A stretch of 61,747 bases of DNA, counting the filler. It is 7 parts of 7 records of this genome, joined end to end, with 100 filler letters (N's around TTAATTAATTAA, not from the genome) between each part and the next. Parts side by side here need not be neighbours in the genome. Positions count along the whole stretch, not along the records: positions 1 to 15,199 come from SRR31147125_8147; 6 more parts are not named here. One strand, written 5' to 3'. The number at the start of each line of letters is the position of its first letter. Positions within the stretch are counted from its first letter, which is position 1. Of the stretch, positions 1 through 11,933 are shown one piece after another. The position numbers and the translations under genes are program-made. The notes under the pieces are model-generated. The model ran no database searches. It was not told the origin of the DNA and saw only the letters and a list, made by a program, of their open reading frames with translations.

Positions 1-1201
1 TTTTTCCGGTCCTGCTACTATCTCAACATGAGTTTGTTTTGTAGTGGCATTCATCATTTGTGAAGCAATGTAGCGGCACCAAATTAAACTATATAGTTGA
101 TATTGATCGTCATTCAGAAATCGTTTTATTTTTTTGGCGTTCTCTTTACGGATGTCGGGCTAATAGCTGTGTTTCCATTTAATTGGTTTTTGGCAGATTC
201 GTAATGATGAGGTTTTATTGGGATATATTCTTTACCGTAATCCTCAAAAATAAGTTCTCGTGCGTTTGTTGTTGCCAGCTCCGGCATGCAACATGAATCG
301 GTATAAATGTGAGTAATAAGACCCACGAACACAGGCTTGCCCAGTGATATCCCTTCATAAAGTTGTTGCGCAATTTGCATGGTTTTTTTTATTGTATAGC
401 CGAAACGTTCTGATGCTGCTTGTGCCAGGGTGCTGGTTGTAAAGGGTGGGAGGGGATCGTTGCTAATTTTATTAAGGGAGAATTGGCTGACAGTAAATGG
501 ATACTCTTTTAGGTTAATAATGACAGCCTTGGCATAATTCAAATCCGGAATATTCGGTTTTCCCCCTTTTATCAACTGGAGATCGGCATTAAAGACGTTA
601 TTTTTTTTTGTTTTTAGTTTTGCCTGAATACCATAATGTTTTTGCGGGGTGAACAAGTCAATTTCATGTTCCCTGTCACACAATAAACCCAGGGCAATGA
701 CCTGTGGTAAACAATTATCCGGTTTTTTTAAAGGCGTTTTAAGAACGGATTTTAACCTGGAATAGGCGAGTTGATTAACAATGAGTCGTGCTCTGTGTGC
801 TTGAGCAAAATTTTTATTGATTTTATGTGGATTTTGGATGGCTTTTTTGATGATCTTTTTAGTAATTTGGTCAAACGAAATTCGTTTAATGCAGATTCCA
901 GAGTCGCCAAGTTCCTGAGCTAAATGGAGTGCATTATCTTCACCCACCGGCCCCAAGGGAGTTGCTATTAAAATTTGATCAACATCTTTTAACTTTTTCT
1001 TAGCGAATTCAGGAAATTTTTTGTTTTACTCGTTGTTTGAAATACGGTCTCATAACCGTTGTTCGTGTTCAGGTCGAGATTTTCTTGTGTCAATTCCTTG
1101 ATATTCCCGAGGATGGGGGACACAAGAAAATCTTTACCTAAAAAATCACGAAAGATCTGGCTTTGATTCTCGTTCTCAACTAAAATCAACGAATTATTCA
1201 T
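1..1201 (-). CDS. topA: Degenerate DNA topoisomerase IA (TopA) homolog, split by two frameshifts and running off the window edge; catalytic motifs absent
   Basis: ORFs 989-1201 and 126-956 plus the continuation KRFLNDDQYQLYSLIWCRYIASQM below nt 126 follow TopA in order (LILVE..., RISFDQITKK, PFTTSTLAQAAS, KTMQIAQQLYEG). Both breaks fall in poly-A runs. It lies directly downstream of smg, the usual smg-topA arrangement. Confidence 0.85.
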
Positions 1202-1236
1202 AAAATCCTTTGATAGGATAAAAAACTCGAAATGTC

Positions 1237-1704
1237 CTAATGACGGAGCCCTGTCGATGTAAATTGAAAGTAACCATTGGAAGCACTATTTTCAAAATCT
1301 AAAACGACGACTGCAATCAGGTCCTGCATATCTTCAATATCCATTTGTGGTACATGCAGGTTAACAGCACGGTCGATAATGGATTCCATATCATCGTCAC
1401 TCAAAAGATTGAGTTCTCTGAGATGGAAAAGATAGCTAAATGCTTCGGATGAAATGGTATTTCGTTCCATTTCATTTAAATGACGCCACAGGGGGCGGGG
1501 AATACCGGAGTTTTTGTTTCGATAAGATATATCCAGTTTATCGCCATGGTTCATTAACCAGCCCATGGCTGACTGTATTTCATCATCGCTAAAGCCTCGT
1601 TCCGACAGAATATTCATAAGAAATTCCAGATCAACATCATCGAAAAAGTTCTGTTGTATCTCTTTCATGACAAATGTCAATATCTCAAGAATGCGTTTAT
1701 TCAT
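1237..1704 (-). CDS. smg: Smg/DUF494 family protein
   Basis: 155-aa acidic protein with LSERGFSDDEIQSAMGWL and a RHLNEME motif typical of DUF494; upstream of topA. Confidence 0.75.
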   Translation of the reverse strand: MNKRILEILTFVMKEIQQNFFDDVDLEFLMNILSERGFSDDEIQSAMGWLMNHGDKLDISYRNKNSGIPRPLWRHLNEMERNTISSEAFSYLFHLRELNLLSDDDMESIIDRAVNLHVPQMDIEDMQDLIAVVVLDFENSASNGYFQFTSTGLRH

Positions 1705-1902
1705 TTATAATAATCCCATAATCTTTCACATGAGCAACCATATTATCAGCATGAATTATCGTCTGTGATAACATCCTATTTGTGCTGAAAGATATGCTTC
1801 TCCCTTCAATTTAGGAAAAAATAATTTAAAAGCAAGTATTTCAATTAGCAGCTTTGTTCTGTTTGTTAAATTGTTGCAAATATGGTACCTGAATTAATCA
1901 GA

Positions 1903-4900
1903 TCACATGTTTTTACCACAACATTGTTTGTATTTTTTACCGCTACCACAAGGGCAGGGATCGTTACGACCGACCCGCGTGGTATTCACGACGGTTCGTT
2001 GTCTTCCTGATTGTTCTGCTATCCGATTTTGTTTTTGATTTTGTGCGCTTGTACTCTGTGCTTGTTTGTATATCTCTACCTGAGAATGCGAGGTTCTGAA
2101 ATTTTTCGGTTCTACGCGACGGATTTGTTTTTCTTCTATTTCACCACCAATATCGAATATTTTAAATAACGTACTTACCACATCCCGGTTGACACGATCA
2201 ATCATTTTAACGAACATTTTATAGCCTTCGGATTTGTACTCCAGGAGTGGATCTTTCTGACCATATCCCCTTAATCCAATTCCTTCCCGAAGTTCATCCA
2301 TGGCATTGAGATGTTGCCGCCAATTTTCATCAATTTTATCAAGAATATAATATCGCTCATATCTGATTGCCAGGTTATCGCCGATTTCACTAACACGCTT
2401 GCGGTATAAATCTTGTGCCCAGGTGCTTAATTTATCCATGACTAAATTTGGATCCATGCGTTCATCGCTATCATCCTGGAGACGTGGAGATTGTCTAAAC
2501 AGTAACCGGCTCTCTGCCTGAATGCGTGGTATCGCCGAGTCGTCCAGGTCTGTCTCATTACCCAGAACATTGCTTATCACAGAATAGATAGCGTCATCTA
2601 TTGACATCAAAACAGAATCGCGGACAATTTCGCTGCTTAATTTTTCCTGACTGAGTCTTTCCTCTTTATATGCATGGTCTTCATATAAAGCCGAATCCCA
2701 TGCGATCAACTCTTCTGTGAAAGATGCCAGAGTATTTACGTCGTTATTTTCCGGTATTGATTTTTGTGGTTTTTGCAAAAACATGCAATATAGCCTCTGT
2801 GAGAGCTGCTGTTGGGTTGTTGCGGATATTTGATTTGAAATCAACATTTCCCTGCATACAGCCATTATAGAGGCTTCAATAAATTCTTCGATAGAAGCAT
2901 GTGATAACATGAATGCATCATAAGCGGTCATGTTTTTTTGCAGCGTTTTTGTAAATGCGTTATGAACAGAATTTACGATTTGTGATGCTGTTTGGTCTTC
3001 GTCAGAGTTTGAAACGATGTTGAGATCTTTAAACACTCTTTCCAGGAATGCGTGCTGATCTGCGTTAAACTGATATTTGTCTTTACCATTTCCTTCCGGA
3101 TTTGAAGTAATGAGATACTCTAAAATAGAATTGACGAAATTTTGTAGAGAAAAATAACCCAGAATTCGATGTCTGATGGGCGCGTGATCATTCTCATTAA
3201 TCGATAATGAAACGATCCATTCCTGAAGCAATTCACGGATTTTGTCACGACGAATGGTTTTAATTTCGTTATGTCCGATATTGGGTTTGGCCAGGAATAC
3301 TCGCTCCAATGCATCAAAAAACTCATCCGTGTTCCATGAAACAGAGGGGACAGAGCTATTCAGATGCAGCGTCATCAGACCAGCCAGAAAGATGTTAATC
3401 ATTTCATGGATTGTTAATTCGGCAAAGGTCGATTCATTGATACCTGTAAGGTTTTCTTGTACCATACTGGTGTATTTTTCTTTAACCCAATCAACTAATT
3501 GATTCTCAAATTGATCTGCAGTTAAATCTGCAGTTGGATTTTGAATGAAATCCGGATAACTCTTGAATATTCGTTCAATTTCATATTGGATGCCTTCAAA
3601 ATTCCAGACTGATATATCTCTTGTACCGGCATCATGCAATCTGATCTTTATTTTTACAAGCTCAGCAAGAAGCTTGTCCATGGAACAATAGCCCATGATT
3701 CGATGTCTTAATTGCGTTTCTTTTAAATGGCTATCTTCCTGCAACCGGGTGTCTATCCATGTTCCGATGGTTTCTTTTATGGATGCCTGATTTTGAGACT
3801 CCAGATCCGCCTCTGTAAATTCAGGCTCGCGATTGAAAAATCGTTGTAGATCCTGAATCAGGTCTTTAAGGTTCCATTCATCCTGATTGTTTTCTTCGCT
3901 AAAATAGATTTTGGTTTTCGATTCGACAAAGTCACTTGTCTGGGCAAAGCCCATTAAATTTTGTCTTCGTTTGTATATGATTTTTCGTTGTTCATTTAAT
4001 ACATCGTCATATTGAAGCAGGTTTTTTCGAATATCAAAATTGCGTTCTTCTACTTTCTTCTGAGCTCGCTCAATTGATCTTGTGATAAGTGGATGTTCGA
4101 TTCGTTCACCTTCTTCAGAAGGACCCAGTTTTGTCATAATGTTCGCTATTCGATCAGAGCCAAACAGACGCATCAGATCATCTTCCAGGGACAGATAAAA
4201 ACGAGATGATCCGGAATCACCCTGACGGCCGGATCGTCCTCTTAATTGACGATCGATTCGTCGAGCTTCATGTTTTTCAGAGCCTACAATATGAAGGCCG
4301 CCTTTTTCAATCACTTGAGGAGATAGTTTGATATCCGTCCCTCGACCAGCCATGTTGGTTGCAATTGTTATAGCACCCGGCACACCTGCTTTTGCCACAA
4401 TTTCCGCTTCATTTTGGTGATATTTCGCGTTCAGGACAGTGTGGAATCGACCGGATTCCAGTTCCCGGCTCACATCTCCTTTTTTCAGCCAGTTGGCTAT
4501 TGGAACGCCTCTTTGGGTAAACATCTGGCTTAATTTTTGTGAAACGTCAACAGAGACTGTACCTATCAGGACAGGACGACCATTATTGTGCATTTCAATG
4601 GCTTCATCGATGACGGCATTGTATTTTTCAAGTTTTGTTCTATAAATGACATCGTTCTGGTCATCTCGGACGACAGGTCTATTCGTCGGGATGACGATCA
4701 CTTCAAGTTTATAAGTACTAAAAAATTCCTGAGCCTCTGTTTCTGCCGTACCGGTCATGCCAGCCAGCTTTTCATAGATTCGGAAAAAATTCTGAATTGT
4801 GACGGTTGCCAGCGTTTGACTTTCAGACTGAACTTCGACACCCTCTTTTGCTTCCAGAGCTTCGTGCAAACCATCACTAAATCGTCTTCCCGGCATTAAA

Positions 4901-7900
4901 CGTCCGGTAAATTGATCGACAATCATGACTGCTTTTCGACCTTTTGTACCTGAGCCTTTGCCTCTGGTTTCTACTTCATCAACAGATTTAACAACGTATT
5001 CAACATCTTTATGATAGAGTGTATAGGCGCGTAAGAGTTGTGAAATGTTTTGAATACGTTCTTCTATATCATTGTATTCCCGCCATAAACGATCTCGTTG
5101 ATTTTCCAGCAGTTTTCGTGGTTTTCGATCAAAATAGAGCCGGCACCAATGTTCAATTTCTTCCGGAGTCAATACAGTATTGGGCGCATGAGCTTTTGAA
5201 ATCAGTTCATTTAATTCACCGTCGTCCAGAATGATTTTCTTTGCTCGCAGATGAGCTTTATCCTTTGATATAATACTATCCAGCTCAGCCCGGGTGTTTA
5301 CCTTTTTACTGCTCAGCCGCAGAATTTCTTCCCGAAATTGACGCAGTTCTTCAGAAAAACTGAAAAAGGGCAAACCATCAAGTAATTGTGTATTTACGGC
5401 TTTTCGTAATTTTGTTGGATAATTTTTTTCACTTAATTCAAAGATAGCATCCAGTTCGATATCCGAATTATCTAACAGGGCCAGCAAGCGCTCTGCGATC
5501 TGTTTGCGATCATCGGCATCATTTAACAGGGTGTGTACACCATTGTCGGACAATCCATTAAATCGTATTTGATCGATATTTTCAGTATCGACTGAGAAAT
5601 CCGCATCGAGTTCAAAATATCTTTTCAGTAATCGTTGTTTTTCAGAAGAGGACAAATCAGATCGATAAAGATTAGAAAACAGGATATTCATAATCCTGGC
5701 GATTCGTTCCACTTCTTCAAAGCGCCGGGAAATGCTTTTGGTGTCTTTGATATCTGTCTGGTCTACAGAAGAATTAAGGAAAGCATCCAGGCTGAATCGG
5801 AGGCTGATAGAATTTTCATTCTGGTCAGCCGTATGGGTTTCCCGCCACTCTTTTATTTTATTCTCGATTTCTGTATACGAATGACCAAGTAAACGATCTT
5901 TTTCCTGAGGAGCCAGACCAACTATTTTTCCTTCTTTAAAACTAAAAAGGTCTTTAAGGTTTTGCCTGGATGTTTGCAGGTTTTTATCAAAAGTGGACAC
6001 TACTGAGCGAGTTTGATCTGCGAAATCGGAAATAAACGCATTAAATGTATCCGTAACTTTCAAATTATAAACAGATGTCTGGTCACCCTGGGTTTGGGTG
6101 TCTACCTGGTAAAATAAAGCAATATTGTTCTCTGTTTTACCTTCAGGGCTATTTGTTATAAATTCTCCAATTTCCTGCAGATCCTGAGCCAGACGCTCCA
6201 CAGAGGTGGCCCGGGCAGCATAGTCAAATGAGACCTGATTTAACGTCTGATCCATAATTTTTTGAATTTCACTATCCCTGAGCTCAACAATGCTTCTATC
6301 AGGCAAGACATAAATATCCGGATTGCCACCTAAAATAGCAATTCTACCTTTTTCTGTAATATTTCGAACTATAGTACCATTATGTGAAAAATCAAAATAT
6401 TCTCGTTTTCGTTCATTTAGTGCATTCGTATCGCCCCCATTTTGTCCCCCATTTTTTGCAGAGCTGATATCTTTGTTTTTTAACAAAGCATTCAGTTTGG
6501 CAATAAAGGGAACCAGCATCGGATTACCATTATTTTTAAGAGCGATAAGGGCTGCTTTACCATCTTCTGTCAGGCCGATTGGGCAACCAAACTGTTTTTC
6601 AGTTACAAAAAAGGTCTCTTGCAGTAGACGTCTTTTATCCTGAATGGAACGACTTGCCGGGCCTTCATCCACATCAGCTTCTTGCTTTATCTTTTCAAAT
6701 AAAGGCGGTAAAAAATCGACAAGTGCTTTAAAAGAGCTGTTTTGTTCGGCGCTTTGAATGAATTCAAGGGTAGCAGTGGTGAGTCCATTTATTATTCGGT
6801 CACCTTTTTTAGCAAAATTAAAATATTGTCTCCATGCAGATGCTTTGTCTGTTTTTTTATTTTGAATGAGATCGGATATGTGATCATGTAATTTATTTAG
6901 GATTTTATCCAGAGTGTCCAGGAATCGCGTGTCTTCATCCGTTATTTTTGCATTTGTACTACAGAGGGCAATTTTCCCTTCCAGAGTGAGGCCATCACAA
7001 TAACCGGTAATAGAGTCGGTAGTAAAATAACGACTAGCATTTTTTTGCTCGCTCAGGTTTGCTAATAAATCATCAATTTTATCTAATTGCACGATCTGTT
7101 GAGCCACATCCTGATCACGGCCACCGGACAGAAAGATTCTGCCTTTTTCTGTAATGTCAAGAACGTGGGTTTTTTCGTCAATTATATAATAGAGTTCAGC
7201 ATCTACCTCGGACATGGTTTTATTTATTTCATATTGTCCCTGCAGGCGTTCGATAAGTTTTTTGACCCAAAATTCAGAAGTTAGAATTTCCAGGAGAGCG
7301 GGATTTTTGGGATTTCCTCGTTGAGCCCGTAACAGCATTAATGCGGCTGTTTCTTCATCTTTTTCTAATAGTTCCTTGCCATCTTTGACGAGTTTGTCAA
7401 CAAGCTCTTTTTGGCGTTTATAAAGATTGGCGACGACAGGTTTCAATTCATAGTAAACATTACGTGGTGCACCAACAGCTCCGGAAATAATAAGAGGTGT
7501 TCGAGCTTCGTCAATTAAAACACTATCAACTTCATCAACAATCGCATAATGTAGACCTCGTTGCACCACAGACCAGATATCTACAGCCATGTTGTCGCGG
7601 AGATAATCAAAACCAAATTCATTGTTCGTACCATAGGTAATATCCGCGTTATAAGCTTGTCTTTTCTCGTTCGGATCCATATCATTGTGCAACGCTGCTG
7701 TGCGGAGGCCGAGGAAATCATAAATTGCACCCATCCACTCACGGTCACGCTGTGCAAGATAATCGTTGACTGTGATTAAATGAGCCCCTTTACCTTCAAG
7801 GGCATTTAGATACAATGGAAAGGTAGCGACAAGCGTTTTACCTTCACCTGTAGCCATTTCAGCGATTTTTCCTTCATGTAGAACAATTCCACCCAGAATT

Positions 7901-8211
7901 TGCACGTCATAAGGAATCATATTCCATTCAATTTCCTGACCGCGTACGAGCCATTTTTTACCCACAAGGCGACGACAGGTATCTTTGACAGCGGCAAAGG
8001 CTTCCGGCAGGATATCATCCAGGGTCTCACCCATGCGGAGACGATATTTAAATTCCAGAGTTTTCGCTTTTAATTCATCATCTGTAAGTTTTTTATAGCC
8101 TTCAGCGATTTCATTTATTTCATTAACGCGCGGTTGTAATCTTTTGGCTTCACGTTCATTTTTCGTGCCGCCCATTACTTTCGCAAACGCTTTTTCGATC
8201 TTGGTAAACAT
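1903..8211 (-). CDS. secA: Preprotein translocase ATPase SecA, giant 2102-aa form with two large repeat expansions
   Basis: Walker [93 protein letters not shown] and C-terminal SEC-C motif [18 protein letters not shown] are all intact in one uninterrupted frame. Confidence 0.97.
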
Positions 8212-8283: not shown

Positions 8284-8333
8284 TTAATATAGGTAAATTT
8301 AAAAAAATATTAATCTCTTTCAATAATATTCAA

Positions 8334-8858
8334 CTAATCTTTACGACCCGATGTTTCTTTGAGTCCACGCCCGGATTTCACGAGTTGGTTTGTTTTTTTT
8401 AGTTCCAACAAAATAGCGTCCAGAATGCCATTTACGAACCGTCCGCTTTTTTCCGTGCTGTACACCTTGGATAATTCGATGGCCTCATCAATAGAGACCT
8501 TTGGAGGAATATCAAAAAAATATAAAAATTCGCAGATAGCCATTCTCATAATAAGTTTATCAATAATAGCAATTCGATTAAAGTCCCAATTTGCTGCTCG
8601 TTTTATGATATAGCTATCTAAATCCTGGCGATTTGCGTATGTTTTCTCTATCATTTTGTCTGCGAAATCCATCGCTTCAGCGTCTGCATCCGGATTGTCA
8701 CGAATTTGTCCGAGGACCATTTGCAGGGAATTCCCTGATAGTTCAAGGGCATAGAGGCCTTGTAATGTAATTTCACGAGCATGGCGCCTTGTGCCCGCAG
8801 AAGATGAGGATTTATACTCTTCATCTTCAAATCGTGTTGAATTATTTGATGTAATCAT
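8334..8858 (-). CDS. nusB: Transcription antitermination factor NusB
   Basis: RRHAREITLQGLY, NWDFNRIAIIDKLIMR, PPKVSIDEAIELSK, FVNGILD. Start uncertain; ATG at 8858 chosen over the ORF-track start at 8885. Confidence 0.93.
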   Translation of the reverse strand: MITSNNSTRFEDEEYKSSSSAGTRRHAREITLQGLYALELSGNSLQMVLGQIRDNPDADAEAMDFADKMIEKTYANRQDLDSYIIKRAANWDFNRIAIIDKLIMRMAICEFLYFFDIPPKVSIDEAIELSKVYSTEKSGRFVNGILDAILLELKKTNQLVKSGRGLKETSGRKD

Positions 8859-9768
8859 GCCACCCGTAAGTATCTTCACATTCACCGTTTACATAGTCAA
8901 AATAACGTTTTTGAATTTTTTCTGTTAATGGACCTCGGCGGCCTTTACCAATTTGAATTCGATCCACAGAACGAATTGGTGTAATTTCAGCAGCCGTACC
9001 AGAGAAGAAAATCTCATCTGCAATGTATAACATCTCTCTGGGGATGTTTCTTTCCACTACTTTGATATTTAATTCTTCAGCGATCTTTAAGACGGAATCG
9101 CGAGTGATGCCAGGCAAAATACTTGAGGCAAAGGCTGGCGTATAAATGACACCGTCTCTAATGACGAATATATTTTCACCACTTCCTTCACTGACCTGAC
9201 CATTGACGTCCAGGCCGATACCCTCTGTAAAACCATTTTGCATGGCTTCCATTTTAATTAATTGAGAATTCATATAATTGGAGCCAGCTTTGGCCAGGCT
9301 TGGCATTGTATTGGGAGCCATTCTATTCCAGGACGACACGCCTACATCAACACCAATCTCAATACCTTCTTCTCCCAAATAGGCTCCCCAGTTCAGCGCT
9401 CCAATAACAACGTCAACAGGACATTTGCTGGGATCCACTCCAAGGCTATGATAGCCACGATAAATGATAGGACGAACATAAGCGGATTCAAAACCATTTA
9501 TTTTTATGGTTTCATTACAAGCGCTTATAACTTCATCCAGGCTGAATTCAATCGGCATTCTATAAATTTTAGCCGAATCAAACAACCTGCGGATATGATC
9601 CGCAAGTCTGAATATGCTTGGCCCATGCGGCGTTTTATAACATCTCATTCCTTCAAACACACTTGTGCCATAGTGGATAACATGAGACATAACATGAATT
9701 TTCGCATCCGGCCAATCTACAAATTGACCATTAACCCAAATTTTTCCTTTTTCATCTCTTGGATCCAT
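8842..9768 (-). CDS. ilvE: Branched-chain amino acid aminotransferase
   Basis: HYGTSVFEGMRCY, KAGSNY, EGSGENIF, ILPGITR, GTAAEITPI (PLP fold type IV). Confidence 0.95.
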   Translation of the reverse strand: MDPRDEKGKIWVNGQFVDWPDAKIHVMSHVIHYGTSVFEGMRCYKTPHGPSIFRLADHIRRLFDSAKIYRMPIEFSLDEVISACNETIKINGFESAYVRPIIYRGYHSLGVDPSKCPVDVVIGALNWGAYLGEEGIEIGVDVGVSSWNRMAPNTMPSLAKAGSNYMNSQLIKMEAMQNGFTEGIGLDVNGQVSEGSGENIFVIRDGVIYTPAFASSILPGITRDSVLKIAEELNIKVVERNIPREMLYIADEIFFSGTAAEITPIRSVDRIQIGKGRRGPLTEKIQKRYFDYVNGECEDTYGWHDYIK

Positions 9769-11505: not shown

Positions 11506-11567
11506 AAATAGCTAACTCCAACCGGTCTCTAGTATATTAAATATGAGGAAAATTACTTTTAAAAAAA

Positions 11568-11933
11568 TCCAAAGCAGGTCGATAAGCCGAATTCTGTAAT
11601 CCAATGGTTATTGGATTGACGATCATTTATCTAGGACATCGATTGCCCGATATCTCAAGCGACCTACCCAAGAGTCAAATGAGGCGGACGACCTCTTCTC
11701 TCTTATTTGGTCTTGCTCCGGGTGGGGTTTACCATGCCTCTGATGTCACCATCAAAGCGGTGAGCTCTTACCTCACCCTTTCACCTTAACCCTGATAAAA
11801 ATCAGGGATGTTTGCTTTCTGTGGCACTTTCCTCGCCTCACGACGAGTCCGCGTTACGGACCACCCTGTCCTGTGGAGTTCGGACTTTCCTCATCCGGAT
11901 CGAGCCGGACGCGATCGTCTGACCTGCTTTGGA
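11568..11933 (-). ncRNA. rnpB: RNase P RNA (bacterial type A)
   Basis: Minus strand has GAGGAAAGTCCG near the 5' end, AGTGCCACAGAAA, GGTAAACCCCACCCGGAGCAAG and ACAGAATTCGGCTTAT near the 3' end. The ends TCCAAAGCAGGTC/GACCTGCTTTGGA pair as P1. Confidence 0.96.

Follow-up and report, generated by a model that had tools for sequence, protein, structure and literature searches.

Results

The secA locus

The window studied here (the whole stretch of DNA that was analysed, 61,747 nucleotides with its filler) carries a secA gene of double size, a single open frame encoding 2102 amino acids, within the conserved gene order rnpB-recJ-ilvE-nusB-secA-smg-topA-like (Table 1). The Pfam domains SecA_DEAD, SecA_PP_bind, P-loop_SecA, SecA_SW and SEC-C were all recognized in the product and the motifs of the protein are intact, with Walker A at residue 119, DEVD at 226, GRSGRQG at 1322, GYGQKDP at around 1979-1981 and SEC-C at 2086. 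The protein passed the cut-offs of TIGR00963 (897 bits, cut-off 800) and PRK12904 (955, cut-off 814); its top NCBIfam score was obtained with PRK12901 (1080 bits, below the cut-off of 1493 for that model), and it stayed below all four SecA2 cut-offs.

Judged by sequence, one bacterial order uses this protein as its housekeeping SecA. It has the NBD1 and NBD2 motifs, an equivalog score above the cut-off, the two-helix finger and the zinc motif (SEC-C was present in 51 of 52 members of the giant family), and its relatives point to a sole, orthologous secA: of the order's 43 genomes, 39 gave no second SecA_DEAD match above the cut-off, among them G001, a single chromosome record of 6.5 Mb. An accessory SecA2 is not consistent with the low scores, the presence of the C-terminal tail and the fact that the gene is usually the only copy in the genome. 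The comparison set consisted of 20 secA loci found in the phylum outside this order, all encoding SecAs with a single wing and 1028-1127 amino acids (L034-L053). In 32 of 34 giant loci the gene immediately upstream of secA is nusB, as it is in 18 of 20 of these sister loci, so the enlargement of the housekeeping gene took place at the ancestral locus. Four genomes of the order also carry a short SecA (934, 856, 808 and 795 aa); three of these second copies (L060, L061 and L062, 795-856 aa) resemble SecA2 in their lack of SEC-C and have a hydrophobic C-terminal stretch.

Table 1. Position of secA, its domains and repeat units, and nusB in the window.
Feature	Residues	Window position	Strand	Basis
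nusB, upstream neighbour of secA, also upstream in single-wing sisters		8334..8885	-	
secA, preprotein translocase ATPase, double size		1903..8211	-	TIGR00963, PRK12904, motif positions
PPXD array I, modules h1-h5; h1 is the ancestral hairpin	336-630	6322..7206	-	
PPXD array II, modules h6-h9, at the tip of the helical hairpin common to sister SecAs	664-950	5362..6222	-	
NBD2 and helical scaffold, with a family-specific 19-aa insert inside	1136-1419	3955..4806	-	
Wing unit 1, A-type, ends in RHR..G linker	1420-1507	3691..3954	-	Sister-HWD profile, E 2.3e-9
Wing unit 2, B-type	1508-1597	3421..3690	-	Sister-HWD profile, E 1.9e-7
Wing unit 3, A-type, copy of unit 1	1598-1685	3157..3420	-	Sister HWD, E 9.2e-7
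Wing unit 4, B-type, most diverged	1686-1770	2902..3156	-	U2-U4 E 1.7e-8, combined profile
Wing unit 5, no A/B type assigned	1771-1858	2638..2901	-	Combined profile
Wing unit 6, most conserved	1859-1948	2368..2637	-	Sister HWD, E 1.4e-7 over 89 columns
IRA1/two-helix finger	1949-2020	2152..2367	-	SecA_SW match, B. subtilis SecA alignment
SEC-C zinc-binding motif	2082-2100	1912..1968	-	PF02810, E 1.6e-9

A repeat in the wing region

An earlier note on this DNA had described six copies of the helical wing domain (HWD) with a period of about 90 residues. Every motif quoted in it was found at the residue given (W1446, W1536, W1626 and F1715; the terminal Phe at 1459, 1549, 1639, 1727, 1811 and 1905), as were the recurring RHRIMGY at 1502 and RHRILGY at 1680, and 90 was indeed the top autocorrelation lag in residues 1420-1955 (z 4.98, equalled in 1 of 1000 shuffles, p=0.001), 178 being the second best. 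Block 1420-1600 aligned with block 1601-1780 at z 19.6 and with the third block at z 6.2; the second and third blocks did not align to each other (z -0.1). Within this single protein, 7 of the 15 unit pairs gave p<0.01 against shuffles and the pairs among units 3-6 were weak, so that family profiles were needed. The Pfam scan with SecA_SW that had been proposed to reveal repeated partial matches returned no internal repeat in the 2102-aa protein, nor did a BLAST self-comparison, and a genome scan with wing peptides of the single protein gave no matches.

Across 37 non-redundant family members, the five helix-C Trp residues singled out in the note (1485, 1575, 1665, 1838 and 1931) are each at least 95% invariant. 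Units 2, 3, 5 and 6 also have an equally invariant Pro four residues past their terminal Phe. The largest direct DNA repeat in the wing is 26 nt long, with 85% identity, around the RHR..GY motif and 534 nt apart; since DNA similarity is limited to this stretch, the repeat is old. A collapsed assembly or a fusion artefact was considered and excluded, given this low DNA repetition, 28 homologues (36-91% identity) that span the entire wing region, a contig depth that is flat across the wing in the sequencing run that may be the source, and a contig from a separate study that covers window positions 1700-6681.

The six units are homologues of the helical wing domain

Residues 1420-1948 consist of six homologues of the HWD, of about 88 aa each, as supported by profiles, a tree, length arithmetic and predicted fold. 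Between the flanking motifs there are 559 residues in the giant protein and 120-123 in the single-wing sisters (19 of 20 parsed), and the surplus of 438 equals 5 x 87.6 residues. When aligned with the giant, B. subtilis SecA runs as far as residue 1458, in unit 1, and picks up again at residue 1917, in unit 6, passing over some 440 residues beyond its own gap.

An HMM built from 19 single wings was run on 52 family wings, a set that includes near-duplicates; units 1, 2 and 6 were matched in register in all of them and unit 3 in 51. With the window protein, units 1, 2, 6 and 3 scored 23.9, 7.9, 14.6 and 13.5 bits, respectively, the maximum with reversed wings as a control being 8.3 bits; units 4 and 5 were not detected with this HMM. 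In profile-profile comparisons based on 39 sequences with less than 90% identity, the sister wing gave E 2.5e-3 with U4 and no direct match to U5 (E 0.076), and the best partners of U5 were U2 (E 1.3e-4) and U3 (E 4e-4). A combined wing profile made without units 4 and 5 gave scores of 29.8 over 74 columns for unit 4 and 34.1 over 72 for unit 5, with a maximum of 17.2 in a null set of 68 windows. Homology to the HWD in register is direct for units 1, 2, 3 and 6, and for units 4 and 5 it runs solely through U2 or the combined profile.

The AlphaFold2 model of the wing (34 sequences; pLDDT 89, pTM 0.85) repeats a helix A/B/C pattern six times, so the structure prediction that the note had proposed as a check yielded six three-helix units. 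Foldseek retrieved nothing at E<=0.001 for either the wing model or that of the preprotein cross-linking domain (PPXD). The wing model was also compared with 48,161 chains in a wide structural search that gives one row per entry. The top match was residues 673-754 of E. coli SecA (2FSF), reported against unit 1 alone (Z 8.1, rmsd 2.7, 77 residues aligned); Z values close to this are common among helical bundles. Several compact chains in the fold-search table align across residues ~2-22 and 522-536 of the wing model, which suggests that the first and last units lie together, and a closed loop is also expected because both ends of the array must join the helical scaffold. The six wings would thus pack as a rigid closed loop, a geometry derived from the aligned ranges of the fold search rather than from coordinates. 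With a pTM of 0.85 and the first and last units apparently together, the 'beads on a string' arrangement suggested previously is disfavoured.

Duplication history of the wing

The strongest pair of units was U1-U3 (E 2.1e-13), which also formed a clade in the unit tree (support 96/83); U2 and U4 matched at E 1.7e-8 and were grouped with support 86/97. U5 was not placed, and U6 resembles U2 (E 4e-8) yet clusters with the ancestral single wings (95/78). This tree was based on 95 columns from 8 giant proteins and 10 of the 19 sister wings, and many of its forks stayed open. The duplication of a two-unit block of 178-180 aa put forward in the earlier note therefore stands for units 1-2 and 3-4; a third A/B copy in units 5-6 is partly supported, with U6 falling beside the ancestral wing, and the alternation is borne out by U1 with U3 and U2 with U4 and not by the remaining two units. 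A strict ABABAB history received no support from the unit tree, and an extension of the two-unit doubling to units 5-6 is only suggested.

In a tree of SecA cores (32 rows, 9 having been dropped for parsing), the giant proteins form one clade with SH-aLRT 100 and a long stem of 0.65. We infer that one wing doubled and that the pair was then duplicated (1-2 giving 3-4), all on this long stem branch of the order. Unit 6, joined to the two-helix finger, is likely the ancestral wing.

A second expansion in the same gene

The PPXD, on which the earlier note did not comment, is also enlarged, with a span of 869 aa as compared with 210-212 in 18 of the 20 sisters. It contains about nine putative hairpin-helix modules in two arrays (window 5167-7206, minus strand; residues 336-1015). 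The 51 proteins that could be parsed all have a PPXD span of 823-869 aa, so the expansion is fixed throughout the order. In the family alignment, a motif of the form aromatic-hairpin-G..L[TS]..G-helix recurs. By profile comparison, h1 matches the sister hairpin at E 2e-19, and the modules are linked through h1-h5 (9e-8), h2-h4 (3e-7), h4-h5 (1e-7), h1-h6 (5e-8) and h3-h8 (4e-7), with weaker links for h7-h9 and h4-h9 (E ~6e-5 to 7e-5). Modules h1-h6 and h8 are in this way chained at E <= 4e-7, and h7 and h9 at ~6e-5; the single protein by itself gave neither significant links nor a significant period.

The AlphaFold2 model of the PPXD (pLDDT 80, pTM 0.66) shows nine hairpin-plus-helix units, five beta-hairpin and helix units in array I and four hairpins in array II, and fails in the last 68 residues. 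The stem helices at 639-655 and ~1045-1055 align as a pair in the structural search, and there was no SecA chain among the matches of fold searches with this model. Elsewhere in the protein, giant SecAs lack the NBD1 insert (~45 aa) and the variable NBD2 insert of the sisters and gain inserts of 19 and 15 aa. In many sister SecAs the variable NBD2 site, after GRGTDIK, holds a Cys-rich insert (4-6 Cys) that could be a metal site. A helical PPXD insert that the giant has in common with the sisters (window 7240-7434, minus strand; residues 260-324) matched TPR-like folds, most closely the presequence receptor Tom20 of rat (Z 6.3, rmsd 3.1, 63 of 66 residues aligned), a middling Z for helices and a lead only.

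Distribution and constraint

Among 167 genomes of the phylum, the six-wing array, as detected by matches to units 2-5, was found in 41 of the 43 genomes of one order and in none of the 124 others. The two members without a match are G101, in which the gene is cut by the end of a contig, and G093. A family-specific motif identified 33 loci in species-representative genomes, labelled candidate division KSB1 (8), UBA2214 (1), uncultured Cytophagia (11), Calditrichota (2), Actinomycetota (1) and bacterium (10). From the record titles and from what is stated in parts of PMC11683472, the group would correspond to KSB1/Zhuqueibacterota; the main text of that article contains 0 occurrences of SecA.

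All 56 parsed proteins have a wing span of 549-560 aa, so that its length is fixed and no unit has been lost. The wing array is under purifying selection: its dN/dS was 0.06-0.33 as compared with 0.02-0.10 in the core, 2-5 times the core value, in the ten closest pairs, partly overlapping, among 27 genes. Intermediates with 1-5 extra wings, or with one array alone, were absent from 91 further long SecAs and 17 metagenome loci, and also from the phylum scan among the matches listed.

Comparison with other SecA proteins

The giant shares its domain order and all catalytic motifs with canonical SecA (E. coli 2FSF, B. subtilis 1TF2/1M6N), which has one HWD in ~840-900 aa, whereas six HWDs and a PPXD of 869 aa are found here. 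The helical PPXD insert and an NPD..LPD motif are common to the long SecA of the FCB group (PRK12901 type) and to the single-wing SecAs of the phylum. The latter occupy the same nusB-secA locus as the giant and differ from it in the lengths of wing and PPXD given above and in its long stem branch. HWD length is also the variable part of SecA2 according to passages of PMC7503281, where the domain is described as shortened in many of these proteins; SecA2 has shortened wings and has lost the tail, whereas the giant is a main SecA with SEC-C.

A search for SecAs longer than 1825 aa yielded 251 proteins, of which 120 were listed, 44 from the six-wing family and 76 others (P0136-P0211). Among the matches listed, 52 of these 76 have a wing region of 1264-1408 aa with a 63-aa period and Anaerolineae labels, 6 a wing region of 802-822 aa (one with a Planctomycetota label), one a 1058-aa wing and one a 366-aa wing, 2 were unparsed, and 14, which carry Abditibacteria/Armatimonadetes labels, have inserts in the PPXD and NBD2 next to a wing of normal size. 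At least three other groups of SecA with 2000-2600 aa can thus be told apart. The KSB1 wing profile gave at most 2 matches in each of the 76 listed. The Anaerolineae-labelled giants (~2000-2220 aa) are thus expanded at the same site with a different period; those with Planctomycetota labels (~2500-2620 aa) join a wing of ~810 aa to an NBD1 insert of ~850 aa, and some non-KSB1 giants show no clear wing period. In contrast to the KSB1 giant, those labelled Abditibacteria/Armatimonadetes (~2220-2300 aa) keep a wing of normal size (127-144). Gigantism at the wing site is thus recurrent and, as these data suggest, convergent, with independent origins. We know of no published description of any of these other giants. 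As for the six-wing architecture, no description was found in the literature searched, most subscription papers and supplements lying outside the search, and within that scope it appears to be a previously undescribed variant of a known machine.

Discussion

Few bacterial machines are as conserved as SecA, whose wing domain has a poorly defined role. Passages of PMC3685266 and PMC5963308 place the signal sequence between PPXD and HWD, PMC3685266 describes in part the PPXD resting at the HWD as a low-ATPase state, and sections of PMC7503281 implicate HWD residues in substrate binding and in contact with SecY and lipids. PPXD and HWD, the pair that flanks the signal-sequence site, are the domains multiplied in the giant SecA.

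The reading we favour, with a probability of about 0.4, is that the six-wing loop and the multiplied PPXD enlarge a cytoplasmic cradle holding unfolded preproteins before SecY. The rigid wing loop would, together with the PPXD arrays, widen the space for unfolded clients, which would be held there and then fed to SecY. Unit 6 may keep the ancestral wing contacts, i.e. the PPXD rest site, the signal-sequence groove and SecY, and the contribution of units 1-5 may lie in their shape and overall acidic surface and not in five sites of specific binding, because conservation drops from the attached units 6 (0.67, 22 of 90 positions invariant) and 1 (0.63) to the distal U4 (0.40, 1 of 85 invariant). 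Every wing unit is net acidic, with family means of -1.6 to -7.5 (-9.3 for the single sister wing), a charge that would favour unfolded clients and the basic ends of signal peptides over rRNA or anionic lipid. SecB was not found in 3 giant or in 2 sister genomes; being absent from both sets, its loss as a chaperone does not account for the gain of wings.

The cradle model is weakened by the lack of invariant surface patches on the distal units and by a dN/dS higher in the wing than in the core, and entrenchment in an essential protein equally predicts selection and a fixed length. A neutral expansion is therefore nearly as likely an alternative: duplications at a permissive peripheral site would have become fixed by drift on the order's stem branch, and the packed units would now be kept only since their loss or misfolding would harm an essential protein. 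The low conservation of the distal units agrees with this, as do the unchanged sizes of SecY, SecD/F and trigger factor in the 3 giant and 2 sister genomes, the enlargement of the same site in unrelated giants by arrays that the KSB1 wing profile misses, and the shortened HWD of many SecA2 described in part in PMC7503281. However, some 1,100 extra residues are costly on a motor protein and not even one unit has been lost in 56 of 56 proteins; besides, two domains that flank one groove grew along a single branch, two inserts of the sister type are absent, and repeated independent gains may equally signal repeated benefit.

The array could also act, through one conserved face, as a docking platform for a lineage-specific partner such as the ribosome, SecYEG/lipid or another protein. 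Such a face would be provided by the RHR..G linkers, the NEIR motif of unit 3 and clusters of invariant polar residues in unit 6, and the canonical HWD does contact SecY and lipids in the portion of PMC7503281 referred to above, but we consider this unlikely given that no order-specific neighbour gene occurs in the block from rnpB to the topA-like gene, that SecY frames measure 452-460 aa in the 3 giant and 2 sister genomes alike, and that an acidic array is ill-suited to rRNA or anionic lipid. We regard as very unlikely an intramolecular dimer mimic or brake, in which extra wings and PPXD modules would supply in cis the cross-contacts of a dimer and keep ATPase activity low until SecYEG is reached. 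The inactive kinetic state with the PPXD beside the HWD (PMC3685266, in part), the PPXD/HWD cross-contacts used in SecA dimer models (sections of PMC7503281) and the multiplication of both domains fit this proposal; nevertheless, the copy numbers differ (9 versus 6), what is amplified in the PPXD is a module smaller than a domain, and a single wing already regulates in other bacteria.

The existence of a six-wing SecA across an order, along with unrelated expansions, shows the wing site to be structurally permissive. Sister genomes with one wing or six at a shared locus constitute natural constructs with which wing functions could be addressed, namely substrate capture, ATPase braking and SecY docking. 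A broader speculation, rather doubtful as it stands, is that wing and clamp are evolvable modules polymerised by unrelated lineages, and that here they form the two jaws of a chaperone-like antechamber that would unite motor and holdase in one chain. For annotation it is relevant that giant secA genes are often labelled as hypothetical or SEC-C domain proteins.

Other features of the window

Downstream of smg, the topA-like gene (window ~1-1210, minus strand) has an active-site segment that departs from the usual YMRTDS, and the departure was also seen in all 16 matching relatives. The copy in the window changes frame twice, possibly through assembly indels. The gene may be a TopA paralogue that has lost catalytic activity and is retained by synteny. 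Between nusB and secA, 3 of 3 sequencing runs have one A more than the window at position 8300, which is noncoding, so that the window probably contains a single-base error there. Away from secA, positions 15200-47081 contain 44-base runs of N in six pairs, the two runs of each pair being separated by 12 bases; these are masked or scaffold gaps. A class A RNase P RNA was identified at window positions 11567-11930 (minus strand) with 307 bits, within the conserved block from rnpB to smg.
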